A stretch of DNA of 64,000 nucleotides from Escherichia coli (lineage in GTDB: Bacteria > Pseudomonadota > Gammaproteobacteria > Enterobacterales > Enterobacteriaceae): NCBI RefSeq assembly GCF_003019035.1, contig NZ_CP027447.1. One strand, written 5' to 3'. The translations under genes were made by a program, and so were the position numbers. The notes below the pieces were generated by a model. It had not been told where the DNA came from, searched no databases, and saw only the letters and a program-made list of their open reading frames with translations. Below are positions 447-37,892 of this stretch, in pieces. Within the stretch, counting starts at the first letter, position 1. Each line of letters starts with the position of its first letter.

Positions 447-927
447 GATACATAAGCCGCGTTTCAAGAAATCGAACTTGCCTTTCAAGATCCTCAATGC
501 GTCGGTCTTTTGACAGCTCCAATGCTGATGCCGCTTTTTCTGGATCAACTGATATTGCAATGTTTCTTTTGGTGCCAATCTTGAGCGCGCGTAAACCAGC
601 TTCTCCGCGCTCTTCATAGACCTTCAGCCACCTGGCTACAGAACCACTACCAGCAAGCATAAAGTGAGCAGCAGCCTGATTAAGGGACATGTGCTGCTCG
701 ATCACAGCTTTCACGACCTTAATACGCAATTCTGGATCAGCACTAACGCCTTTAGGTTTGGGAATTAAACCTTTTTCTCCATGTTTTTCATAGAGGGCAA
801 CCCATGTCCTGACCTGGGTTCGGGGGACACCAAAACGTGCCGAGATGATCCTGTAACCATCATCAGTTGTGAAGTAGTGATTCACGACTTCAAGGCGCTT
901 TTCAAAAGGGTATTTTGGCTTTGACAT
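406..927 (-). CDS. insJ: IS150 transposase OrfA (InsJ), HTH DNA-binding subunit
   Basis: 173-aa ORF MSKPKYPFEKRLEVVNHYF... recognised as IS150 InsJ. Confidence 0.9.
   Translation of the reverse strand: MSKPKYPFEKRLEVVNHYFTTDDGYRIISARFGVPRTQVRTWVALYEKHGEKGLIPKPKGVSADPELRIKVVKAVIEQHMSLNQAAAHFMLAGSGSVARWLKVYEERGEAGLRALKIGTKRNIAISVDPEKAASALELSKDRRIEDLERQVRFLETRLMYLKKLKALVHPTKK
439..445 (-). other. A-AAA-AAG slippery heptamer, programmed -1 ribosomal frameshift site of IS150 orfA/orfB
   Basis: Plus strand CTTTTTT at 439-445 is AAAAAAG on the coding strand, about 10 codons before the insJ stop. Confidence 0.6.
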
Positions 928-1188
928 ATTAGGGGCTATTCCATTTCATCGTCCAACAAAATGGGTGCAGTACACACTTTGATTTATAGTCAGGTGGGGC
1001 TTTTCTCTGTCTGCCTTTCGGTGAATACCTGAGACAAACAGTCTCAAGCACCCGTGGCTATTCTGGCTTAATAAGTTCGTTTCTTCTCCTTGATATAATC
1101 CTAAAAAAATCTCATAAAATTAATATATGAGACAATCTTTATTCAGCAGAAGATTATTAAAGGTTGCTCTATTATTTAGCGATAAAAA

Positions 1189-15064: not shown

Positions 15065-15127
15065 CGATGATGAGAATTATCGGCGTCGCATCAGGTAACT
15101 CAGCACAATCACCTGATGGGAGCAAAA

Positions 15128-15157
15128 GCCTTATCCGACCGACAAGTCGGATAAGGC
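15128..15157. repeat. REP-like palindromic unit (GCCTTATCCGAC-CGACAA-GTCGGATAAGGC) between convergent xylR and bax
   Basis: Perfect 12-bp inverted repeat with 6-nt loop resembling E. coli REP/PU elements. Confidence 0.5.
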
Positions 15158-19815: not shown

Positions 19816-20289
19816 TCAAACAGGCTGCTGCCGTAGCCGATGCCGCTGCACTTTCTCGACATCCATGCACTGCAACGCCTTTGTCGGGCAGGCTTCAACA
19901 CAGGCCGGCCCCGTCGCCCGATGCCAGCACAGATCGCATTTAATCGCCCTCGCCTTTTTGCGCGAAGAAACGACCTCCATCGCACCAAACGGGCAAGCCA
20001 GCATACAGCTTTTACAGCCAATGCAACGTGATTGTTCAACGAAAATATGCCCATGTTCGCGGCTTATCGCGTCAACAGGGCAGACATTCGCGCACGGTGC
20101 ATCTTCACACTGATGACAGGCTACTGCCGTGGTCCAGCTGTGGTCTTTAATGACACGAATACGGGAAATAAACTCGTCTGGTGACAACGCAGCGCAATCC
20201 TGATTCTCCTGATGCGACACTGCGCAAGCCACTTCACAGGTACGGCAACCGATACATTTCGTCGCATCCGCAATAATAAACCGGTTCAT
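19816..20289 (-). CDS. ysaA: 4Fe-4S ferredoxin-type protein YsaA
   Basis: Multiple CxxCxxC clusters (CIGCRTCEVAC, CIGCKSCMLACP); start at the second Met. Confidence 0.85.
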   Translation of the reverse strand: MNRFIIADATKCIGCRTCEVACAVSHQENQDCAALSPDEFISRIRVIKDHSWTTAVACHQCEDAPCANVCPVDAISREHGHIFVEQSRCIGCKSCMLACPFGAMEVVSSRKKARAIKCDLCWHRATGPACVEACPTKALQCMDVEKVQRHRLRQQPV

Positions 20290-29519: not shown

Positions 29520-30335
29520 CTACGAATTGATATGTTCCTTGCTGTAACGTCGCTTCCACGCAGCTGGCGTTAAGCCGGTGTGTTTGCGAAAAATCTGCCG
29601 GAAATAGCCGACGTCATTAAACCCGCACAACGCCGCCACTTCCGTGAGCGATCGCGCTTCGCTAATTAACAGCTTTTCGGCTTCGCGCACCCGCTGGCGG
29701 TGGATTGCTTCTGTTAACGTCAGATGAAACACCCGCCGATAGACGCGCCCAAGATAATCGGCATTGCAGTACAGCTCGCGGGCTAAAAGCGCCGTGGAAA
29801 GCGGGCGGTGATATTGCGTGCGAATCAGTTTCTGCGCTTTCCAGGCAAGGGTGGTGCCTGCACCATCGGCCTGTTCATCAAGACGCGCGTCACGGGTGAG
29901 CTGCTGCAAAATCAGCAGCACAATAAACTCCAGCGCCGGAGTGCGTTGATGCTTTTCCTGTTCGCTTAAGAACTGGCGAAACAAGGCCACCAGCACCTGC
30001 GGATCGGCAACCTTAGTTTGTTGCGGCACGCTAAGATGAGTGAGCCAGCGCGGGTCGCTATCCGGCGCTTTAACCTCAAAATGCAGCCAGTAAAATTTGA
30101 GATCGGCGGGAAAATCCTCTACCCCAACATGCTGTCGGTTCGGCCAGAGTAATAAACTCTCTCCCGCATCGACCAGAAATATCCGCTCTTCTTCCTGAAT
30201 CGCTAATCGACCTTTTTCGACAAAGATAATTTCCCATGACTCCAGCCGCCTTGCCGGATGCCTCCCAACGCCACGGGAAATAAATAATCCACCATTTTGC
30301 ACTTTAATCGGTAACGTCATGGATAATTCGAGCAT
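29520..30335 (-). CDS. AraC-family transcriptional regulator (cupin sensor + C-terminal AraC HTH)
   Basis: 271-aa ORF with C-terminal AraC-type HTH (...LTEVAALCGFNDVGYFRQIFRKHTGLTPAAWKRR); divergent from the transporter gene. Confidence 0.8.
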   Translation of the reverse strand: MLELSMTLPIKVQNGGLFISRGVGRHPARRLESWEIIFVEKGRLAIQEEERIFLVDAGESLLLWPNRQHVGVEDFPADLKFYWLHFEVKAPDSDPRWLTHLSVPQQTKVADPQVLVALFRQFLSEQEKHQRTPALEFIVLLILQQLTRDARLDEQADGAGTTLAWKAQKLIRTQYHRPLSTALLARELYCNADYLGRVYRRVFHLTLTEAIHRQRVREAEKLLISEARSLTEVAALCGFNDVGYFRQIFRKHTGLTPAAWKRRYSKEHINS

Positions 30336-30383
30336 TGATATGTAATTTCCCGCTTATTCATTAATGATTAAACACATTACCTT

Positions 30384-30398
30384 TTGATTATTAATCAA
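30384..30398. promoter_or_regulatory. Perfect palindrome TTGATTATTAATCAA in the AraC / transporter divergent intergenic region (candidate operator)
   Basis: 15-bp perfect inverted repeat flanked by further ATTAAT direct repeats. Confidence 0.35.
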
Positions 30399-30560
30399 AA
30401 ACATTAATTTCACCTGATCCATTTCACACTTTTAAATTCAGGTCGGAATCGTCACCTTTTTTTACTCTTTTCTCGCCTTGTTGATATTCCCGTTCACGGC
30501 AGAATTAATCAGGTCATTGCAATAAAACTAAAAATTGCTCCCTATTCACGAGGAATATCT

Positions 30561-31961
30561 ATGACCTCTACACCGATTACTGCCGCTGATATCGCTAAAG
30601 GTAAAATTGACGATGCGTTATCTGTACGGGAAAAAATAAGCTACGGCCTGGGTGACGCAGGCGGCACCGTAATAACTTGCCTGATCATGAACTTTCTCAC
30701 CTTTTTCTACACCGACGTTTTTGGCTTAACTCCGGCGCTGGTCGGCACGCTGTTTATTGCACTGCGCGTGTTTGATGCCATCTCCGACCCGGTGATGGGC
30801 GTCATTGCCGACCGGACGCAAAGTCGCTGGGGGCGCTTTCGTCCGTGGCAGTTGTGGATTGCCATTCCCATCGGCATTATCGGCATCCTGACGTTCACCG
30901 TGCCAGATGCCAGCATGGGAGTAAAAATCGCCTGGGCGTTCGGTACTTACCTGCTCCTTTCAGTCGGTTATACCGCCATCAACGTACCGTACTGCGCGCT
31001 GATCAACACCATGACCACCCGCCACAATGAAGTGATCTCCTGCCAGTCCTGGCGATTCGTTCTCTGCGGCGTAGCGGGATTTCTGGTTTCGGTTGGCCTG
31101 CCGTGGATGGTGGATCTCTTCGGTCAGGGTAATGCCGCGCGCGGCTATCAACTGGGCGTCGGCGTGCTGTGCGCCATCGCTGTGGTGATGTTCCTGTGCT
31201 GTTTCTTCTGGGTTCGTGAACGGGTGCCACTCTCCACAATGGGGAAATTTACCCTGCGCGAACATCTTGCCGGGCTGCGGAACAACGACCAACTGCTGCT
31301 GATGCTGGTCATGTCTTTCCTGCTGATTAACGTCTTTAATATTCGCGGCGGTGGGTATATGTACTTCATTACCTACGTCTTACAAGGCAGTACGGGCTAC
31401 ACGTCGCTGTTCTTCACTATGGTCACCTTCGCCTCCATTATCGGCTCGGTGATTGTCAGCCCGTTAACGCGGCGTTTCGATACCGTCAAAATTTACTACT
31501 ACACCAACCTGCTCCTCGCCGCGCTGGCGGTGTTGATGTGGTTCCTGCCTTCTGGCCCGGCTTATCAAACGCTGTGGCTGGCGGTGATCCTCGGTAATGG
31601 CGTGATTCTTGGCTTCACATTGCCATTGCACTTCTCATTGATGGCCTTTGCCGATGACTACGGCGAGTGGAAAACCCGCGTACGTTCTTCCGGCATGAAC
31701 TTCGCCTTCAATCTGTTTTTCATCAAACTGGCCTGGGCCTCCAGCGCCGGGATCATCAGCCTGCTGTTTATTTTTGTCGCCTACCAGCCAGGCGTGGAAA
31801 ACCAGACCGCCAGTTCGCTTGGCGGGATCACAGCAATGGAAACATTGCTGCCTGCGCTGTTCCACCTGCTGCTGGCGATGGCGATCCGCTTTTGCAAACT
31901 CAATAACCCTATGATGTCACGCATTGCTAGCGACCTGCGTCAGCGTCATGTACAGCCTTAA
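30561..31961 (+). CDS. GPH-family (glycoside-pentoside-hexuronide) sugar:cation symporter, MFS superfamily
   Basis: 466-aa polytopic ORF with the GPH signature [25 protein letters not shown]. Confidence 0.8.
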
Positions 31962-31971
31962 GGAGCACAAG

Positions 31972-33951
31972 ATGAACATTTCGGAAGTCGATCTGCATAA
32001 ACTGACGGTCAGCGATCCGTTCCTCGGTCAGTACCAACAACTGGTCCGCGACGTGGTGATTCCTTATCAGTGGGATGCCTTGAACGATCGTATCCCAGAA
32101 GCGGAACCCAGCCATGCGATTGAAAACTTTCGCATTGCCGCCGGACTTCAGGAGGGTGAATTTTACGGGATGGTGTTTCAGGACAGCGACGTCGCCAAAT
32201 GGCTGGAAGCGGTAGCCTGGTCGCTGTGCCAGAAGCCGGACGCCGAACTGGAAAAAACCGCCGACGAGGTGATTGAACTGATCGCTTCCGCCCAGTGCGA
32301 AGATGGCTATCTCAATACTTACTTTACGGTAAAAGCGCCCGAAGAACGCTGGAGCAATCTGGCGGAGTGCCATGAACTTTACTGCGCCGGTCATCTGATT
32401 GAAGCCGGAGTCGCCTTCTTCCAGGCCACGGGCAAGCGGCGCTTGCTGGAAGTGGTTTGCCGTCTGACCGATCATATCGACAGCGTATTTGGTCCAGGTG
32501 AAAGTAAGTTACACGGTTATCCTGGTCACCCGGAAATTGAACTGGCACTAATGCGCCTGTATGAAGTGACCGAAGAGCCGCGCTACCTGGCGCTGACGAA
32601 CTATTTTGTCGAACAGCGTGGTGCGCAACCGCACTATTACGACCAGGAATATGAAAAGCGCGGGCAGACCTCGCACTGGCACACCTACGGCCCGGCGTGG
32701 ATGGTGAAAGACAAAGCCTACAGCCAGGCACATTTGCCCATCGCACAGCAGCAAACCGCCATTGGTCACGCGGTACGTTTTGTCTACCTGATGACCGGCG
32801 TCGCGCATCTCGCCCGTTTAAGTCACGATGAAAGCAAGCGTCAGGATTGCTTGCGGCTGTGGAACAATATGGCCCAGCGTCAGTTATATATTACCGGCGG
32901 CATTGGCTCACAAAGCAGCGGCGAAGCGTTCAGCAGCGATTACGATCTGCCGAATGACACGGTTTACGCCGAAAGTTGTGCTTCCATCGGCCTGATGATG
33001 TTCGCCCGACGAATGCTGGAAATGGAAGGCGACAGTCAATATGCCGATGTGATGGAGCGCGCGCTGTACAACACTGTGCTCGGCGGCATGGCACTGGATG
33101 GCAAACATTTCTTCTATGTGAATCCGCTGGAAGTACATCCAAAATCGCTGAAATTCAACCATATCTACGATCACGTTAAGCCGATCCGCCAGCGTTGGTT
33201 TGGCTGCGCTTGTTGTCCGCCAAATATCGCCCGCGTACTGACCTCGATTGGTCATTATCTCTACACGCCGCGTGAAGATGCGTTGTATATCAACATATAC
33301 GCAGGAAACAGCATGGAAGTGCCGGTAGAAAATGGCACGTTGCGCCTGCGGGTTAGCGGGAACTATCCGTGGCAGGAACAGGTGACAATTGCGGTTGAAT
33401 CGCCCCAGCCGGTGCGTCATACGCTGGCTTTACGTCTGCCGGACTGGTGCACACAGCCGCAGATCATATTGAATGGGGAAGAGGTCGAGCAGGATATTCG
33501 TAAAGGGTATTTGCACATTACCCGCGAATGGCAGGAGGGCGACACGCTGAATCTAACTTTGCCAATGCCAGTACGTCGCGTTTACGGTAACCCGCTGGTG
33601 CGTCACGTCGCCGGAAAAGTGGCGATTCAGCGCGGCCCGCTGGTGTATTGCCTGGAACAGGCCGACAACGGCGAGTCACTGCATAACCTGTGGCTGCCCG
33701 CCGATGCGCCATTTACGACATTTGAAGGCAAGGGATTGTTCCGCCATAAGATCTTAATCCAGGCACCGGGTTACCGGTATGAACAGAGCAATCCAGAGCA
33801 GCAACCGCTGTGGCATTACGACAGTGCGCCAGCCAAACGCCAGCCGCAAACTCTGACGTTTATTCCGTGGTTTAGCTGGGCTAACCAGGGTGAAGGCGAA
33901 ATGCGGATCTGGGTGAATGAGGAAAAGCATTGCCATCCGGAGGTTGGATAA
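31972..33951 (+). CDS. Glycoside hydrolase family 127 (DUF1680; beta-L-arabinofuranosidase HypBA1-like); start at the ATG preceded by AGGAG
   Basis: 659-aa protein; E-S-C and C-A-C-C-P-P-N motifs about 77 residues apart match the GH127 Glu/Cys3 zinc-cysteine catalytic centre. Confidence 0.75.
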   Translation: MNISEVDLHKLTVSDPFLGQYQQLVRDVVIPYQWDALNDRIPEAEPSHAIENFRIAAGLQEGEFYGMVFQDSDVAKWLEAVAWSLCQKPDAELEKTADEVIELIASAQCEDGYLNTYFTVKAPEERWSNLAECHELYCAGHLIEAGVAFFQATGKRRLLEVVCRLTDHIDSVFGPGESKLHGYPGHPEIELALMRLYEVTEEPRYLALTNYFVEQRGAQPHYYDQEYEKRGQTSHWHTYGPAWMVKDKAYSQAHLPIAQQQTAIGHAVRFVYLMTGVAHLARLSHDESKRQDCLRLWNNMAQRQLYITGGIGSQSSGEAFSSDYDLPNDTVYAESCASIGLMMFARRMLEMEGDSQYADVMERALYNTVLGGMALDGKHFFYVNPLEVHPKSLKFNHIYDHVKPIRQRWFGCACCPPNIARVLTSIGHYLYTPREDALYINIYAGNSMEVPVENGTLRLRVSGNYPWQEQVTIAVESPQPVRHTLALRLPDWCTQPQIILNGEEVEQDIRKGYLHITREWQEGDTLNLTLPMPVRRVYGNPLVRHVAGKVAIQRGPLVYCLEQADNGESLHNLWLPADAPFTTFEGKGLFRHKILIQAPGYRYEQSNPEQQPLWHYDSAPAKRQPQTLTFIPWFSWANQGEGEMRIWVNEEKHCHPEVG

Positions 33952-34020
33952 GGCGCTCGCGCCGCATCCAACGTAGGGAGCACATTGCCTGATGCGACGC
34001 TTAACGCGTCTTATCAGGCC
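33936..34020. repeat. BIME-like pair of REP palindromic units overlapping the 3' end of the GH127 gene
   Basis: GCCTGATGCGACGCTTAACGCGTCTTATCAGGCC (33987-34020) is a canonical REP; an imperfect inverted copy lies at 33940-33975. Confidence 0.6.
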
Positions 34021-34062
34021 CACGAGTCGGTGCAGTTGCCCGCTAACCATCGAAACGCGAGA

Positions 34063-34473
34063 TTAAACGCCCGGCAATACACGCCGGGCAGCTTCTGCCA
34101 GAAACGCACTTCTGTTGGCGTAGTCTGGGTTATTGCGCACGTAGGTATCAATCTTGTTCAGTAACCTTTTCGGCATCGTAATATTGATACGTTCAGCCCG
34201 ACCTTCGAACTGATTCATATTGATATCCACCAGCAACCATTGCCCGCCAATAAAGTCCTGCGCACGCTGGACCAGATGTGTTTCCACAGAGCCTGGAAGC
34301 GGCAACTCTTCATCCATCTCGCATAAGGTTTCGAAGTGCGCGACCAGTGCACTTCGCGCATCCTGGAAAGCGTTGTCCAGCGTATCACCAGCAAAATAAC
34401 AGCCTGGAACATCAGGGAAAAAACCGCTGGCGCTGCCGTCAGGATCACTGTGGATATAGGCGGGATAAAACAT
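34063..34473 (-). CDS. hicB: HicB-family antitoxin (N-terminal RNase H-like fold, C-terminal ribbon-helix-helix)
   Basis: 136-aa ORF 16 bp downstream of the hicA-like gene; C-terminal RHH-like segment ITMPKRLLNKIDTYV... Confidence 0.75.
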   Translation of the reverse strand: MFYPAYIHSDPDGSASGFFPDVPGCYFAGDTLDNAFQDARSALVAHFETLCEMDEELPLPGSVETHLVQRAQDFIGGQWLLVDINMNQFEGRAERINITMPKRLLNKIDTYVRNNPDYANRSAFLAEAARRVLPGV

Positions 34474-34489
34474 ATTGCCTCCTGAAATT

Positions 34490-34675
34490 TTAAAATGTTA
34501 AACCAGCCTGACGCCCAATTTGCGCCAGCGTACCGGGCTTAATATCTTTTTTAGGGTGCGGAACCGTCACCAGACCCGGATGAACAGGGTGGCGGAACTG
34601 ATGATGACTGCCACGGGTTCGAATATGTTCCCAGCCATGCTGCTTCAGGATGGCGATCACGTCTGCACTTTTCAC
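34490..34675 (-). CDS. hicA: HicA-family mRNA interferase toxin (YcfA-like); apparent GTG start
   Basis: 61-aa ORF with the GSHH motif (IRTRGSHHQFRHP); toxin-first gene order. Confidence 0.75.
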   Translation of the reverse strand: MKSADVIAILKQHGWEHIRTRGSHHQFRHPVHPGLVTVPHPKKDIKPGTLAQIGRQAGLTF

Positions 34676-34950
34676 ATCCCTGCCCTTCCATGATTATACA
34701 CACGATACACACAATTAGTGATAACAATCACGATAGCGCGATTTATATGGGCCGTCAGGGGGATAAAGTTGACTCAGGAATGCCGCTCGGAAGAAGAATA
34801 ACGGTGTGCAGTAACTTGTTGAAAAGATGCGAGGAGACTCGTAATTAAGTTCAATCAATATTCAGTCATTCAAGACGTAGACATTTGAATTGGTAAAACG
34901 CGTAAGCGTCGCATCAGGCAATGAATACCCAATGCGACCAGCTTCTTATA

Positions 34951-36489
34951 TCAGAACAGCCCCAACGGTTTATCCGAGTAGCTCACCAGCAGGCACTTGG
35001 TTTGCTGGTAATGCTCAAGCATCATCTTATGGGTTTCGCGTCCGATGCCCGACTGTTTGTAGCCGCCAAACGCCGCATGTGCCGGGTAAGCGTGATAACA
35101 GTTGGTCCACACGCGCCCGGCCTGAATGCCGCGCCCCATCTTATAGGCCAGATTACCGTTGCGGCTCCAGACACCCGCGCCCAGGCCATATTGCGTGTCG
35201 TTCGCCAGCTCCAGCGCTTCTTCCATAGTTTTGAAGGTGGTCACCGCCAGCACCGGACCAAAAATTTCTTCCTGGAACACGCGCATATTATTCTGACCAA
35301 ACAGAATCGTCGGTTCGAGGTAGTAGCCGTCTTTCAGTTCGCCTTCCAGCAGCTTGCGCCGCCCGCCGGTGAGCACGTCTGCGCCCTCTTTTTTACCAAT
35401 ATCAATGTAGTTGAGGATGGTTTCCAATTGCCCGTGCGAAACCTGCGCCCCCATTTGCGTCACGCTGTCGAGCGGGTTACCGCTACGAATGCTTTCGACA
35501 CGGCGGATGGCGCGTTCCATAAAGCGTTCGTAGATAGACTCCTGCACTAAAGCACGGCTTGGACAGGTGCAAACTTCGCCCTGGTTAAAGGCAAACAGTG
35601 CAAAGCCTTCCAGCGCTTTATCGAAAAAGGCATCTTCTTCATCCATCACATCAGCAAAGAAGATATTTGGCGACTTGCCGCCCAGTTCCAGGGTTACCGG
35701 AATAATATTTTGCGTGGCGTACTGCATAATTTGTTGGCCCACTTCCGTTGATCCGGTAAACGCCACTTTGGCGATGCGTTTCGAGGTCGCCAGATATTCG
35801 CCAATTTCCCCACCAGCGCCGTTAACCACGTTCACCACGCCCGGCGGCAGTAAATCACCGACGATTTCCATTAGCAGCAGTACAGAAAGCGGGGTAAGAC
35901 GTGCGGGTTTCAGCACCACACAGTTGCCCGCCGCCAGCGCGGGAGCCATTTTCCAGCTCGCCATCAGCAGCGGGAAGTTCCACGGAATAATCTGCCCCAC
36001 CACGCCTAACGGTTCGTGGAAGTGATAAGCCACAGTTTCGCTATCCACTTCACTAATACCGCCTTCCTGTGCCCGGATACACGAGGCGAAATAGCGGAAA
36101 TGGTCAATCGCCAGCGGTACATCAGCAGCACTGGTTTCGCGAATGGGTTTGCCGTTATCCCAGGTTTCAGCCGTCGCTAACAGTTCAAGGTTTTGTTCCA
36201 TTCGATCGGCAATCTTAAACAGAATTGCCGCGCGATCCTGCACCGAGGTATGTGCCCATTTATCTTTCACTTTATGCGCGGCATCCAGCGCCAAATCGAT
36301 GTCTCGTTTGCCCGAAGACGCCACTTCGCACAGCAGCTGCCCGGTCACCGGCGTCAGGTTCTGGTAATACTCGCCGTCGGCAGGGGCTACCCACTCGCCG
36401 CCGATAAAGTTGTCATAACGGGCTTTTAACTTAAGAGGAAAACCATACTCGCCGGGCTTAATCTGTGCTGAAGGGGGATTATTGGTCAT
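34951..36489 (-). CDS. aldB: Aldehyde dehydrogenase B; start at internal ATG ([15 protein letters not shown]...)
   Basis: ORF 34951-36579; known 512-aa protein starts at the ATG at 36487-36489. Confidence 0.95.
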
Positions 36490-36596: not shown

Positions 36597-37892
36597 TTAC
36601 AGCGGATAATGCGCGAAGTACACGGCTTGCTGGTCATTAATTTTCTTCTCTTGCGCAAACCCTTCTTTAACAATTGTCCGTAAATCAGCTCGAGCCGTAT
36701 TATCAGAGACGCCCAGGCTCGCGCTAATTTCAGCAACTGTGTACTCTTTCCCCGGATTGGCGAGCATCACATTCAGGAGCGTTACCTGGCGCGGATTCAG
36801 GCGTTTAAGCACACCAGAGCTAAACAGCACACTATCGAGTTTTGCGCTTCGTTGTGTAATTTCATCGATATGCTGCTGCCAGTTTTGCAGAGCACGTTTA
36901 ATGACACCCGCCTGATATTCAAGGAAATAAGTCAGATCCATACCATCTGATTCAGTGTACTGGTAGCTGGCGGCATATTTGACCGGTGCAGCATGAAGCA
37001 AACGGCTGATGGAAATATATTTAAAGACATCGTAGCCCGATTTCAGCATATACCAGTAAAACAGCGCCCGACTGGTGCGCCCGTTGCCATCCCGAAACGG
37101 ATGTTCATGGGCCAGCATAAAATGCAGAATGCAGGCACGGACCAACGGATGAATATACCCTTCATGGCTGTTTAACCACTGGCAAACTTTTTCCAGCCGT
37201 TCCGGTAACAATGCCGCAGCGGGCGGTTGATGCACTATACTGCCATCATAGTCGGCGATCACAACATCATCTGTTTCACGAAATTCTCCCGGACGATATT
37301 TCGCGTCATTGATTCCACCCATACCAATGGCATGTAACTGGCGAATAAGCGCAGGTGTCAGCGGTTCTGCGAGTAAGTGCGGAATTTCCGCCATCAGCCG
37401 GGCATTTCCCGCAATCATATGCTCGTCTTCAGTGCGTGGCGACCGCCCTGTTTCCAGCATTTTTCTCGCCACCAGCGTTGTAGTATTCGCACCCTCCAGC
37501 TGGGAGCTGGTGATCGGCTCTTCCAGGCGTAACTGGCTTAACTCGGCTCCGGCCCCGCGTAACCGTTCAGTCTGATCTTTCAGCGCCAGCGCGGTAGCAC
37601 GTTTGTCGACAAGCTCGCACGCTTCTGCAATCACCGGGGTAATGTTGAATCCGGCCTGTTCACCCGCTTCATTGCAATAATTAATTCGTTGGATCGCCGC
37701 GTTGCGCGCCAGACGGGTAAGCGTCCACGCCACATCGACGTTTTCTCCTTTTTTGATGCGGTACTGCAACTCATCAAAAGGCAGATAACGTCCTTTTTCA
37801 TCGGTAACCCGGTTAAAGCGCAGGTGGGCCAGGAGTTCCTCACCCGATAAGTGTGATAAAGGAATAAGTCCGGGAGGTGATTTGATAGCCAT
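36597..37892 (-). CDS. Class II Fic-domain protein (putative AMPylase) with N-terminal inhibitory motif and C-terminal helix-turn-helix-like region
   Basis: 431-aa ORF; canonical Fic motif [12 protein letters not shown]; inhibitory-helix motif S-S-Q-L-E-G; C-terminal winged-helix-like segment. Confidence 0.85.

Follow-up and report, generated by a model that had tools for sequence, protein, structure and literature searches.

The 3′-end of a gene for a GH127 β-L-arabinofuranosidase, found in a 64,000-nt stretch of Escherichia coli DNA (hereafter the window), runs into a palindromic sequence that an initial sequence-only reading took for a REP/BIME element. This raises the question of what kind of repeat is present, how much of the gene it supplies, and whether it plays any role at this site.

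The repeat is a Y/Z2 REP pair

Positions 33939–34023 of the window hold a single BIME-2-type member of the E. coli REP family, in which a Y unit and a Z2 unit of inverse orientation face each other head to head across a 13-nt linker (Table 1; Y/Z2 nomenclature of Gilson, Bachellier and Hofnung, summarised in Ton-Hoang et al. 2012, PMC3333891). The segment 33939–33973 reads GGAG-GTTGGATAAGGCG-CTCG-CGCCGCATCCAAC and is a Y-type REP; the segment 33987–34023 reads GCCTGATGCGACGC-TTAAC-GCGTCTTATCAGGC-CCAC and is a Z2-type REP. Each unit matched the consensus of its type, the Z2 hairpin showing 0 mismatches to the Z2 consensus pattern; the comparison was also made with the Y and Z2 units adjoining aldB in K-12. 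Both are imperfect palindromes with a stem-loop, of a size within the 30–40 nt of REPs. The Y hairpin is composed of an outer stem of 7 bp (GTTGGAT/ATCCAAC), an AA/GC internal mismatch, an inner stem of 4 bp and a CTCG loop. Two pairs of the outer stem depart from the consensus through compensatory changes (four substitutions, CCGG/CCGG to TTGG/CCAA). The predicted folds leave bases unpaired within both stems (AA/GC in Y, C/T in Z2), and noncomplementary stem bases have been described as a requirement for E. coli REPs (PMC3333891). The tetranucleotide GTAG expected 5′ of the stem foot, or CTAC on the complement, was missing from both units, which carry GGAG and CCAC instead. Since allelic copies have the canonical GTAG or CTAC, this allele is a point-mutated REP copy and not a non-member of the family.

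Table 1. Coordinates of the GH127 gene end, the REP elements and the neighbouring genes in the window
Feature	Position	Strand	Details
GH127 β-L-arabinofuranosidase gene, 659 aa	31972..33951	+	PGAP CDS in identical record, and ORF
GGAG, mutated GTAG tetranucleotide of Y REP	33939..33942	+	T to G at 33940; allele comparison
Y-type REP hairpin	33943..33973	+	31 nt
GH127 stop codon TAA	33949..33951	+	Within GGATAAGG, 5′ arm of Y REP
Short head-to-head linker GTAGGGAGCACAT	33974..33986	.	13 nt; Rfam alignment
Z2-type REP hairpin, consensus sequence	33987..34020	+	34 nt; starts 36 nt past the stop codon
CCAC, degenerate CTAC tail of Z2 REP	34020..34023	+	T to C at 34021
Breakpoint, 17 nt past Z2 REP	34037..34038	.	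Alignments
hicB	34063..34473	-	Convergent with GH127; hicB stop 42 nt from Z2 REP
hicA	34490..34675	-	Convergent with GH127
Degenerate Z2 REP	34877..34919	+	31 nt downstream of aldB stop; GTAG-first

The Rfam model RF02564 (naRNA4) matched positions 33942–34020 on the + strand with 71.6 bits (gathering score, 59.5 bits; E = 1.1e-10 for the whole window). The match covered the full length of the model (positions 1–77), with near-identity to both consensus halves, and was the only one above threshold in the entire 64 kb. The sequence-only reading had named a scan with REP models as the check on which its claim could fail, and the element passed. Its description of the sequence holds, and its limits for the element, 33936–34020, were correct within a few bases.

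RF02564 models the 77-nt Y-linker-Z2 unit of REP325 (PMC4550694), which brings up the alternative of a functional naRNA4-like gene for a trans-acting, nucleoid-associated RNA. The score above the gathering score and the published dependence of naRNA4 activity on two hairpins, not on sequence (PMC4550694), are both in line with such a gene. However, the model describes a plain Y-linker-Z2 unit, so any BIME unit of this kind would score. On the sense strand both loci show the same 77–79-nt arrangement, a Y hairpin followed by a linker and a Z2 hairpin (Qian et al. 2015, PMC4550694), but the present one lies between GH127 and hicB and not between yjdM and yjdN, has one unit compared with six, and has a linker of similar length and unrelated sequence. 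A discrete HU-binding RNA that takes part in nucleoid condensation belongs to REP325; at the present locus such an RNA would be hypothetical. The single unit, moreover, forms part of the 3′-end of an mRNA, and most E. coli can dispense with it. The chance that an naRNA4-like gene is present is thus considered minimal.

Within the REP family, a Y and a Z2 unit with a short linker define BIME-2, BIME-1 having a long (L) linker that bears an IHF site; linkers between REPs vary (PMC3333891). The alternating orientation and the short (S) linker place the element in BIME-2. These elements typically form tandem arrays, whereas a single Y+Z2 pair is present here; an alternative definition allowing 'two to twelve' units is satisfied by a single pair (PMC1187871). 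The element shares with other E. coli BIME-2 the unit sequences, the imperfect palindromes whose stems are mismatched at two bases or one, the inverse orientation, the short variable linker, the high chromosomal copy number, the inter-strain polymorphism in unit number, and a site between convergent genes, where a transcription unit has its 3′-end. In addition to its single pair, it differs in having both GTAG and CTAC mutated, in the TTGG/CCAA outer Y stem (CCGG/CCGG in others), and in overlapping a coding sequence by about 10 nt, REPs being defined as (mostly) extragenic.

Of 5426 complete E. coli genomes, 5425 carried the 90-bp element, each with 14 to more than 40 copies among the matches listed. 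At least 204,888 of these places were chromosomal and 138 were on plasmids (about 99.9% chromosomal, among the matches listed); plasmids make up an estimated 3% or so of the bases in that genome collection. The earlier statement that REPs are chromosomal features is borne out by these numbers. In a spread sample of listed chromosomal copies at other loci, none of the 21 had an annotated feature beneath the match. The element at 33939–34023 is confirmed to be a genuine but ordinary copy of a common chromosomal repeat, a typical representative of a kind already known. The RefSeq feature table of K-12 has no REP annotated for this region, though a Y+Z2 BIME adjoins aldB in that strain. Elsewhere in the window, REP-like pattern matches at 20207–20272 fell in coding sequence with no palindrome and were set aside as due to chance; the segment 15084–15155 is a REP-derived remnant below Rfam detection.

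The repeat supplies the last codons and the stop of GH127

The GH127 open reading frame and the PGAP CDS agree on an end at 33951, which places the TAA stop codon within the 5′ half of the Y stem. Repeat and coding sequence overlap by some 10–13 nt, positions 33939–33951 being within the GH127 CDS; the greater part of the element is intergenic. Because the GH127 frame runs past the conserved fold into the Y unit, the repeat contributes both the TAA stop and the three codons before it (E-V-G). The conserved fold stops at residue 650 (…WVNE, about nt 33921), and residues 651–659 (EKHCHPEVG) are an Escherichia-specific extra tail that reaches into the repeat. The Pfam GH127 catalytic, middle and C domains were all found, the last ending at residue 649. 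PDB entry 4QJY (648 aa) aligned to GH127 residues 11–650, ending at its own residue 647, and in orthologues from other genera (n = 43) the protein ended 1–6 residues past the conserved W(V/I)xE motif.

The tail region occurred at exactly one place per genome, with no other genomic copies. The idea that the tail sequence AAGCATTGCCATCC might be an older, degenerate REP was dropped, the likeness to the 3′ arm of Y being weak. The sequence-only reading was silent on the REP supplying the last codons and the stop, on the allele-dependent stop and on the translation drop reported for REPs near stop codons.

The gene end differs among strains

The GH127 stop was embedded in a REP in every strain allele compared. 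In the window and in BL21 it is the TAA of GGATAA; in O157, 23CRST013, Ec73552, 14EC020, CEC01311, BEC1, the U12A type and Escherichia sp. E1V33 it is a TAG within the GTAG motif of the REP. Two further alleles stop at a TAG or a TGA, the TGA lying inside the Z2 stem. The C-terminal tails read EKHCHPEVG, EKHCHP, ETSAIRR and ETSA, according to the allele. Twelve Y+Z2 loci were read individually, six with TAA and six with TAG; this share refers to those 12 loci, BLAST summaries giving no such count. GGAG was seen in only six of the loci read, and the canonical CTAC tail of the Z2 REP was present in strains 1517k and 14EC020.

The gene end was found in 2315 genomes, with Y+Z2 in about 1394 of them and Y+Y+linker+Z2 in 567; the Y REP was lost from 354, which leaves 1961 Y-bearing genomes. 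In the 567 (U12A-type) genomes the second unit is a Y, not a Z2, and an extra 35-nt AT-rich linker is present. Although 567 complete genomes have this U12A-type allele, PGAP labelled its GH127 gene as 'frameshifted' in each of the three records examined; the sole indel over the 1852 nt compared was a 1-nt deletion in the non-conserved tail.

These alleles suggest the following history. The canonical GTAG of the REP very probably gave GH127 its original in-frame TAG stop, and a T-to-G change at 33940 in this lineage very probably abolished GTAG and stop together. Translation would then have ended 9 nt later, at the TAA within GGATAAGG. A T-to-C change at 34021 very probably degraded the CTAC of the Z2 unit as well. 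A role for the GTAG tetranucleotide in REP-transposase recognition has been described (PMC3333891). Judging from the published in-vitro requirements of the REP-associated transposase, set against GGAG and CCAC, neither unit here should remain a good substrate. An inverted REP doublet, as found here, is the proposed mobilisable unit of REPIN/RAYT (TnpA-REP) systems, and the unit loss, unit swap and linker change at this site resemble proposed products of TnpA-REP recombination (PMC3333891); with both recognition tetranucleotides mutated, however, the present copy is predicted to be inert.

The element is poorly constrained: Y is lost in 354 of 2315 genomes, the second unit is swapped in 567, and some alleles have weaker Y stems. 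Such loss, swapping and stem weakening give no sign of strong selection on it. It is possible, at less than even odds, that this real REP pair is a selfish or neutral repeat in decay, not selected for any role here, and that the stop overlap is accidental, the reading frame simply running into adjoining sequence. This would fit the mutation of both transposase-recognition motifs, the changes in unit content, the stem-weakening substitutions of several alleles, and the position of the tail residues outside the conserved fold. However, the hairpins would still form in the mRNA, with physical consequences; the compensatory TTGG/CCAA change kept the Y stem; and a hairpin started ≤15 nt from the stop at 38 of 45 orthologous loci of other species, as scored with a crude detector and no control set.

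Locus context and age of the element

The BIME sits between the convergent GH127 gene and hicBA operon. At the breakpoint given in Table 1, hicBA-type genomes, such as that of the window, diverge from yiaTUVW-type genomes (BL21, O157); a hicB remnant in K-12 matches 34038–34146. The degenerate Z2 REP downstream of aldB is disrupted by a 7-nt insertion (TTTGAAT) and, together with the BIME, brackets the hicBA cassette. Between GH127 and aldB lies a segment that varies among genomes (hicBA, yiaTUVW or nothing), and the BIME marks one of its edges. BIMEs are associated with strain-specific 'loops', and the variable segment fits this pattern.

Of the 5426 E. coli genomes, 2315 had the GH127 gene end at one and the same sgbE-aldB site, and most of the remaining ones had a 190-bp remnant (ysaD of K-12). 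Synteny of the MFS and GH127 genes, with aldB, hicBA or yiaTU downstream, extends beyond Escherichia to Citrobacter, Kluyvera, Klebsiella, Enterobacter, Salmonella diarizonae, Leclercia and others. The evidence supports the long residence of the locus in enterobacterial chromosomes, deduced earlier from the presence of REPs, and most of it does not depend on the REP. The Y unit itself was found in three downstream contexts (hicBA, yiaTUVW and cassette-free). A half-REP, the 5′ arm of Y, was detected in E. whittamii and Escherichia sp. E1V33; since these two non-coli Escherichia species carry it as a homologous sequence, the element is probably old, and a Y unit very likely stood at this position before E. 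coli diversified. The half-REP could alternatively represent an empty, pre-insertion site, which implies a less parsimonious alignment. A literature search on ysaC, ysaD, yiaT and GH127 yielded nothing relevant.

Folding and possible roles of the element

RNA folding of 33930–34030 gave −45.6 kcal/mol, compared with −32.2 ± 3.1 for shuffled sequences (z = −4.3; 0 of 200 shuffles as good). The Y hairpin alone gave −17.6 kcal/mol (z = −3.2 against shuffles) and the Z2 hairpin alone −21.3 kcal/mol (z = −6.45). The Y stem was weaker in other alleles (O157, −13.8 kcal/mol; U12A, −11.9 kcal/mol). Two GC-rich hairpins where the final gene of the MFS-GH127 operon ends could be thought to act as its Rho-independent terminator. 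However, neither hairpin is followed by a U-tract, and the terminator scan of 33700–35000 had no match on the + strand; this explanation, to which only a very slight probability is given, was rejected.

Newbury, Higgins and colleagues reportedly described REPs in 1987 as 3′ stabilisers of mRNA, in malE-malF and other operons. The present element has in common with them a stable hairpin with no U-tract at the 3′-end, a putative exonuclease barrier, so that stabilisation of the transcript end, consistent with known REP biology, could occur here too. In the MFS-GH127 transcript the element would fold into two such hairpins. The proximal Y hairpin holds the stop codon, and a terminating ribosome would have to melt it; the distal Z2 hairpin would lie outside the footprint of that ribosome. 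Compared with other stabilisers, only the Z2 hairpin would thus remain folded during translation, where it may block 3′-to-5′ exonucleases and protect the upstream message.

When a REP lies less than 16 nt from a stop codon, it is reported to stall ribosomes and lower protein yield, with tmRNA tagging (Liang, Rudd and Deutscher 2015, Mol Cell 58:431, as described in PMC12306157). The GH127 hairpin likewise lies at the stop, and well within this distance: the stem foot (33943) precedes the stop codon. Compared with REPs lying 1–15 nt past a stop, the distance here is negative, the stop being 6 nt inside the stem. The effect to be expected would be ribosome stalling at termination with a lower protein yield, and since such an effect is reported for REPs near stop codons, the element is predicted to dampen GH127 synthesis. 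That the REP is part of the termination signal of the gene, with the stop-in-hairpin setting GH127 output, would go further and seems improbable. If true, the allelic series (TAG within GTAG at the foot of the stem, TAA 6 nt into it, TGA in the Z2 stem, Y deleted) would be a set of expression variants, and GTAG would serve both as transposase recognition signal and as in-frame stop, coupling the mobility of the repeat to the C-terminus of the enzyme.

Work by Espeli and Boccard in 1997 is said to have connected BIME-2 with gyrase. Gyrase could plausibly act on the DNA of a Y/Z2 BIME that separates two convergent transcription units, and the element might exist mainly as such a site, relieving positive supercoiling between GH127 and hicBA (or aldB); as a variant, cruciform DNA may be the target of nucleoid proteins. 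The Y+Z2 composition with a short linker, which defines BIME-2, and the position between convergent genes in every context seen agree with this, as does the published cleavage of BIME-2 by gyrase, as cited in PMC12306157. However, the gyrase studies used multi-unit BIME-2 and a single unit is present at this putative site; a DNA-level role is also compatible with RNA-level ones, and does not exclude them. As the main explanation it is considered rather unlikely. The best explanation as a whole, held with good though not full confidence, is a BIME-2-type unit with an ancestral GTAG/TAG history and roles at the RNA level, all functional steps being extrapolated from other REPs.

Significance

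For basic biology the finding carries little weight, REP/BIME elements being among the best-known bacterial repeats and this copy a typical one. Its sole unusual feature is that GH127 reads into the repeat, taking its final codons and a strain-variable stop from a REP. REP-embedded stops make the C-terminus vary among strains while leaving the enzyme fold untouched, and they can mislead annotation, as in the U12A-type genes labelled 'frameshifted'. With four natural configurations among sequenced strains, some of them standard ones (BL21, O157 EDL933), the locus offers a natural test bed for the reported ≤15-nt rule relating REP-to-stop distance to translation.

REP units of minimal BIME-2 form at the end of the GH127 gene

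Two REP hairpins lie at the end of the GH127 beta-L-arabinofuranosidase gene. The first unit (33939-33973) reads GGAG-GTTGGATAAGGCG-CTCG-CGCCGCATCCAAC and is of the Y type; its sole stem departures from the consensus, CCGG to TTGG and CCGG to CCAA, are paired with each other, so that the Y stem stays intact. The second (33987-34023; GCCTGATGCGACGC-TTAAC-GCGTCTTATCAGGC-CCAC) is a Z2 unit, with no mismatches to the Z2 consensus. Positions 1-77 of the Rfam covariance model RF02564 (naRNA4) aligned to 33942-34020 (+ strand) at 71.6 bits, above the gathering score of 59.5 (E = 1.1e-10 in the 64-kb window as a whole), and no second match in the window passed that threshold. Since this family represents the REP325 unit of 77 nt, 'Y motif - linker - Z2 motif' (PMC4550694), the match tests identity as a Y/Z2 BIME and is no evidence for an sRNA gene. 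The 101-nt stretch 33930-34030 folded at -45.6 kcal/mol, versus -32.2 +/- 3.1 kcal/mol for shuffled sequences (z = -4.3; none of 200 as good). Folded singly, the Y and Z2 hairpins reached -17.6 and -21.3 kcal/mol, respectively, and each had an internal mismatch, as is typical of E. coli REPs (PMC3333891).

A 90-bp stretch of the element was found at 14 to >40 places per genome in 5425 of 5426 complete E. coli genomes. Among the matches listed, 204,888 places were chromosomal and 138 were on plasmids; with plasmids making up an estimated ~3% of the bases in the genome collection, this represents a plasmid depletion of roughly 40-fold or more. The sequence, the Rfam match above the gathering score, the folding and the genome-wide copies confirm the REP/BIME element noticed in the sequence-only reading, and the scan with REP models did find a match to the REP consensus. 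Judged by its sequence, the element belongs to the E. coli REP family, in minimal BIME-2 form (Y+Z2, short linker), a kind long known and of which this copy is typical. It differs from a BIME-2 array in being a single pair, not a tandem series, and from REP325/naRNA4 in its locus. Further departures are its overlap of 10-13 nt with a coding sequence and, in this allele, mutated GTAG/CTAC tetranucleotides, which are canonical in allelic copies.

The window is E. coli chromosome, with 100% identity to strain SCU-301 over the stretch tested. In a REP-derived remnant at 15084-15155, half a Z2 arm (CGTCGCATCAGGT) precedes a perfect 12-bp palindrome made of two Y tail-side arms (GCCTTATCCGAC CGACAA GTCGGATAAGGC); the remnant had no Rfam match. 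Near the window start, the model of the sok antitoxin RNA (RF01794; gathering score 59) matched 898-1053 (- strand) at 82.7 bits, which points to a hok/sok-type toxin-antitoxin locus on the chromosome. Within the last hicB codons, and crossing the hicB stop, lies a terminator-like hairpin (34068-34090, - strand; 9 pairs, 7 of them GC, then TTTAATCTCG), which was not beyond chance in the scan control (1 found vs 1.5 expected).

Gene order and REP features around the GH127 gene in the window
Feature	Position	Strand	Remark
yiaK-sgbE operon (yiaN, yiaO, lyxK, ulaD, sgbU, araD)			start of the gene order around the element
AraC-family regulator	29520-30335	-	
MFS_2 sugar transporter	30561-31961	+	
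GH127 beta-L-arabinofuranosidase	31972-33951	+	
Y+Z2 element	33939-34023		between GH127 and hicB
hicB	34063-34473	-	
hicA	34490-34675	-	
degenerate Z2 REP	34877-34919		31 nt downstream of the aldB stop
aldB	34951-36489	-	

The GH127 stop codon is supplied by the repeat

The ORF and the PGAP CDS of GH127 both end at 33951, so that the stop codon falls within the Y stem. With last codons ...CCG GAG GTT GGA TAA, the gene takes its final residues E-V-G and its stop from the Y unit, namely from the GTAG-side flank and the 5' arm (GGATAAGG). The Pfam GH127 C-terminal domain ends at residue 649, and the Geobacillus GH127 structure 4QJY (648 aa), aligned to residues 11-650, ends at its own residue 647 (...WVNE). 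The proteins of 43 orthologues of other genera, all drawn from species-representative genomes, extend 1-6 residues past the conserved W(V/I)xE motif (for example NEQ*, NER*, NEEK*, NEAEA* and NEEKSAEM*). The longest tails are those of Escherichia: EKHCHPEVG* in the window, ENRRHPQVG* in E. whittamii and ENRRHP* in Escherichia sp. E1V33. By these alignments, the conserved enzyme ends upstream of the Y-encoded tail.

A hairpin of at least -9 kcal/mol strength starting no more than 15 nt from the stop (median 6 nt) was seen at 38 of 45 GH127 loci of other genera, as counted with a crude detector and without a control set. In most genera a REP-like or other hairpin of their own lies very near the GH127 stop, the REP types and orientations differing between genera.

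Allelic forms of the gene end

Comparison of the flanks across strains, suggested in the sequence-only reading, covered 17 E. coli and two other Escherichia loci, and the stop codon lay within REP-derived sequence in every allele. Allele (a), that of SCU-301, BL21, D2, 1517k, MMC-J-0020 and FDAARGOS_497, ends as in the window. In allele (b) (O157:H7, 23CRST013, Ec73552, 14EC020, CEC01311 and BEC1) the end is ...CCG TAG, the TAG belonging to the REP's GTAG tetranucleotide in its canonical form. Allele (c), the U12A type, has a 1-nt deletion at 33923 that yields ...ETSAIRR*, with the TAG in GGTAGGATAAGG; its second unit is Y, not Z2, after which come an AT-rich linker of 35 nt, a Z2 unit and then aldB directly, with no cassette. 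Allele (d), the HSP60 type, is 56 nt shorter, the Y unit and linker being absent; its tail is ...ETSA*, and the TGA falls in the Z2-like unit that remains, within its 5' arm (GCATGATGCG). Natural alleles thus use three different stop codons, all repeat-supplied, including a GTAG motif that doubles as TAG, which is mildly new.

The GH127 3' end was present in 2315 of the 5426 genomes; most of the others hold just a 190-bp internal remnant, the K-12 pseudogene ysaD. A Y unit stood at the stop in 1961 genomes, 567 of type (c) and ~1394 with Y+Z2, the latter figure agreeing with the 1393 genomes that matched the 90-bp element at >=90% identity. Type (d) accounted for 354 genomes, in which the match stops at position 33925. 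The 12 Y+Z2 loci read were evenly divided between TAA (6) and TAG (6).

GTAG is shared by alleles (b), (c) and Escherichia sp. E1V33, and the simplest reading makes it ancestral; the GGAG of the window (T to G at 33940) would then be derived, the change having removed a stop and added three residues to the protein. The CTAC of the Z2 unit is canonical in 1517k and 14EC020 and is CCAC in the window. The REP-associated transposase TnpA-REP requires GTAG and a stem mismatch in vitro (PMC3333891); with both tetranucleotides lost, the window copy is probably immobile. E. whittamii and E1V33 retain GTAGGATCGATAAAGCGC and GGTAGGGTAAAGCGC, best read as the Y-unit 5' arm with the loop and 3' arm deleted. 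To regard them as an 'empty site' is less parsimonious; as deleted Y units, they suggest the Y unit to have been here before E. coli split from both lineages.

The U12A-type allele also affects annotation. PGAP labelled GH127 'frameshifted' in all three U12A-type records fetched, and 567 genomes carry the allele. The tail deletion at 33923 was the sole indel in the 1852 nt compared, which began after the gene's first 128 nt, and it falls in the non-conserved part (tail ...WVNEETSAIRR*). The gene thus probably encodes an intact enzyme mis-flagged as a pseudogene, an annotation side-effect that is mildly new.

Possible roles of the element

No U-tract after the hairpins and no predicted terminator were found on the + strand (33700-35000). 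The Z2 hairpin starts 36 nt past the GH127 stop; out of the terminating ribosome's reach, it would persist and could block 3'-to-5' exonucleases, the classical REP role and the one suggested in the sequence-only reading. The proximal Y hairpin would need to be unwound before the ribosome gets to the stop. According to PMC12306157, Liang, Rudd and Deutscher (2015) reported REPs <16 nt from the stop to down-regulate translation via ribosome stalling; that source gives 260 of 496 REPs in this class for Liang et al. and 446 of 4072 by its own count. As DNA, the element is a candidate gyrase site, being a Y/Z2 BIME flanked by convergent genes. We hold it possible, if somewhat doubtful, that the element has no selected function at this locus, as might be expected from the loss of the Y unit in 15% of carriers, the weaker stems of some alleles (-13.8 and -11.9 kcal/mol) and the swapped second unit in 567 genomes. 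This weak conservation suggests any role here not to be strongly selected.

Cassette exchange and age of the locus

The GH127-aldB interval holds hicBA (~489 genomes), yiaTUVW (BL21, O157, K-12) or nothing (the 567 U12A-type genomes). The BIME is a landmark in this locus: genomes of the hicBA and yiaTUVW types stay collinear across it and part at 34037/34038, the yiaTUVW block joining 17 nt past the Z2 REP. K-12, a yiaTUVW carrier, still has part of hicB between yiaW and aldB, a remnant that matches 34038-34146. The aldB-side REP block of K-12 is a full Y+Z2 BIME, unlisted in the RefSeq feature table for this region; in the window a 7-nt insertion (TTTGAAT) interrupts the aldB-side Z2 REP, which is intact in K-12 and U12A. 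The BIME and the aldB-side block thus bracket the hicBA cassette with REPs, and the cassette-free U12A type joins both blocks. The locus fits the reported association of BIMEs with strain-specific 'loops' (PMC1187871) and the variation of REP unit number between strains (PMC3333891).

In K-12, a ~4-kb deletion (29624-33644 vs NC_000913.3 3750813-3751109) took the MFS transporter together with the greater part of both the AraC-family regulator and GH127, leaving the pseudogenes ysaC and ysaD as its two stumps. The regulator remnant is ysaC; ysaD corresponds to window 33645-33834 (90.5% identity), and the same 190-bp remnant occurs in ~2450 complete genomes. Between aldB and yiaY, the window strain has a Fic-family protein gene (36597-37892, - strand) that is missing from the 165-nt intergenic gap of K-12, and is thus another strain-specific insertion. 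An Enterobacteriaceae-type MFS-GH127-hicB locus, its GH127 75% identical to the E. coli protein, was found in CACSKA010000004.1, labelled Chryseobacterium sp. 18061; it is a near twin of a Citrobacter record from the same project, and the assembly is probably mislabelled or contaminated.

In other genera, MFS-GH127 directly precedes aldB, hicBA and aldB, yiaT-yiaU (with or without aldB), or hicB(A) and yiaT-yiaU. Both the gene neighbourhood and the variation in it are thus old within Enterobacteriaceae. The long chromosomal residence proposed from the REP element is thus supported, and more strongly by the conservation and variability of the locus than by the REP alone.
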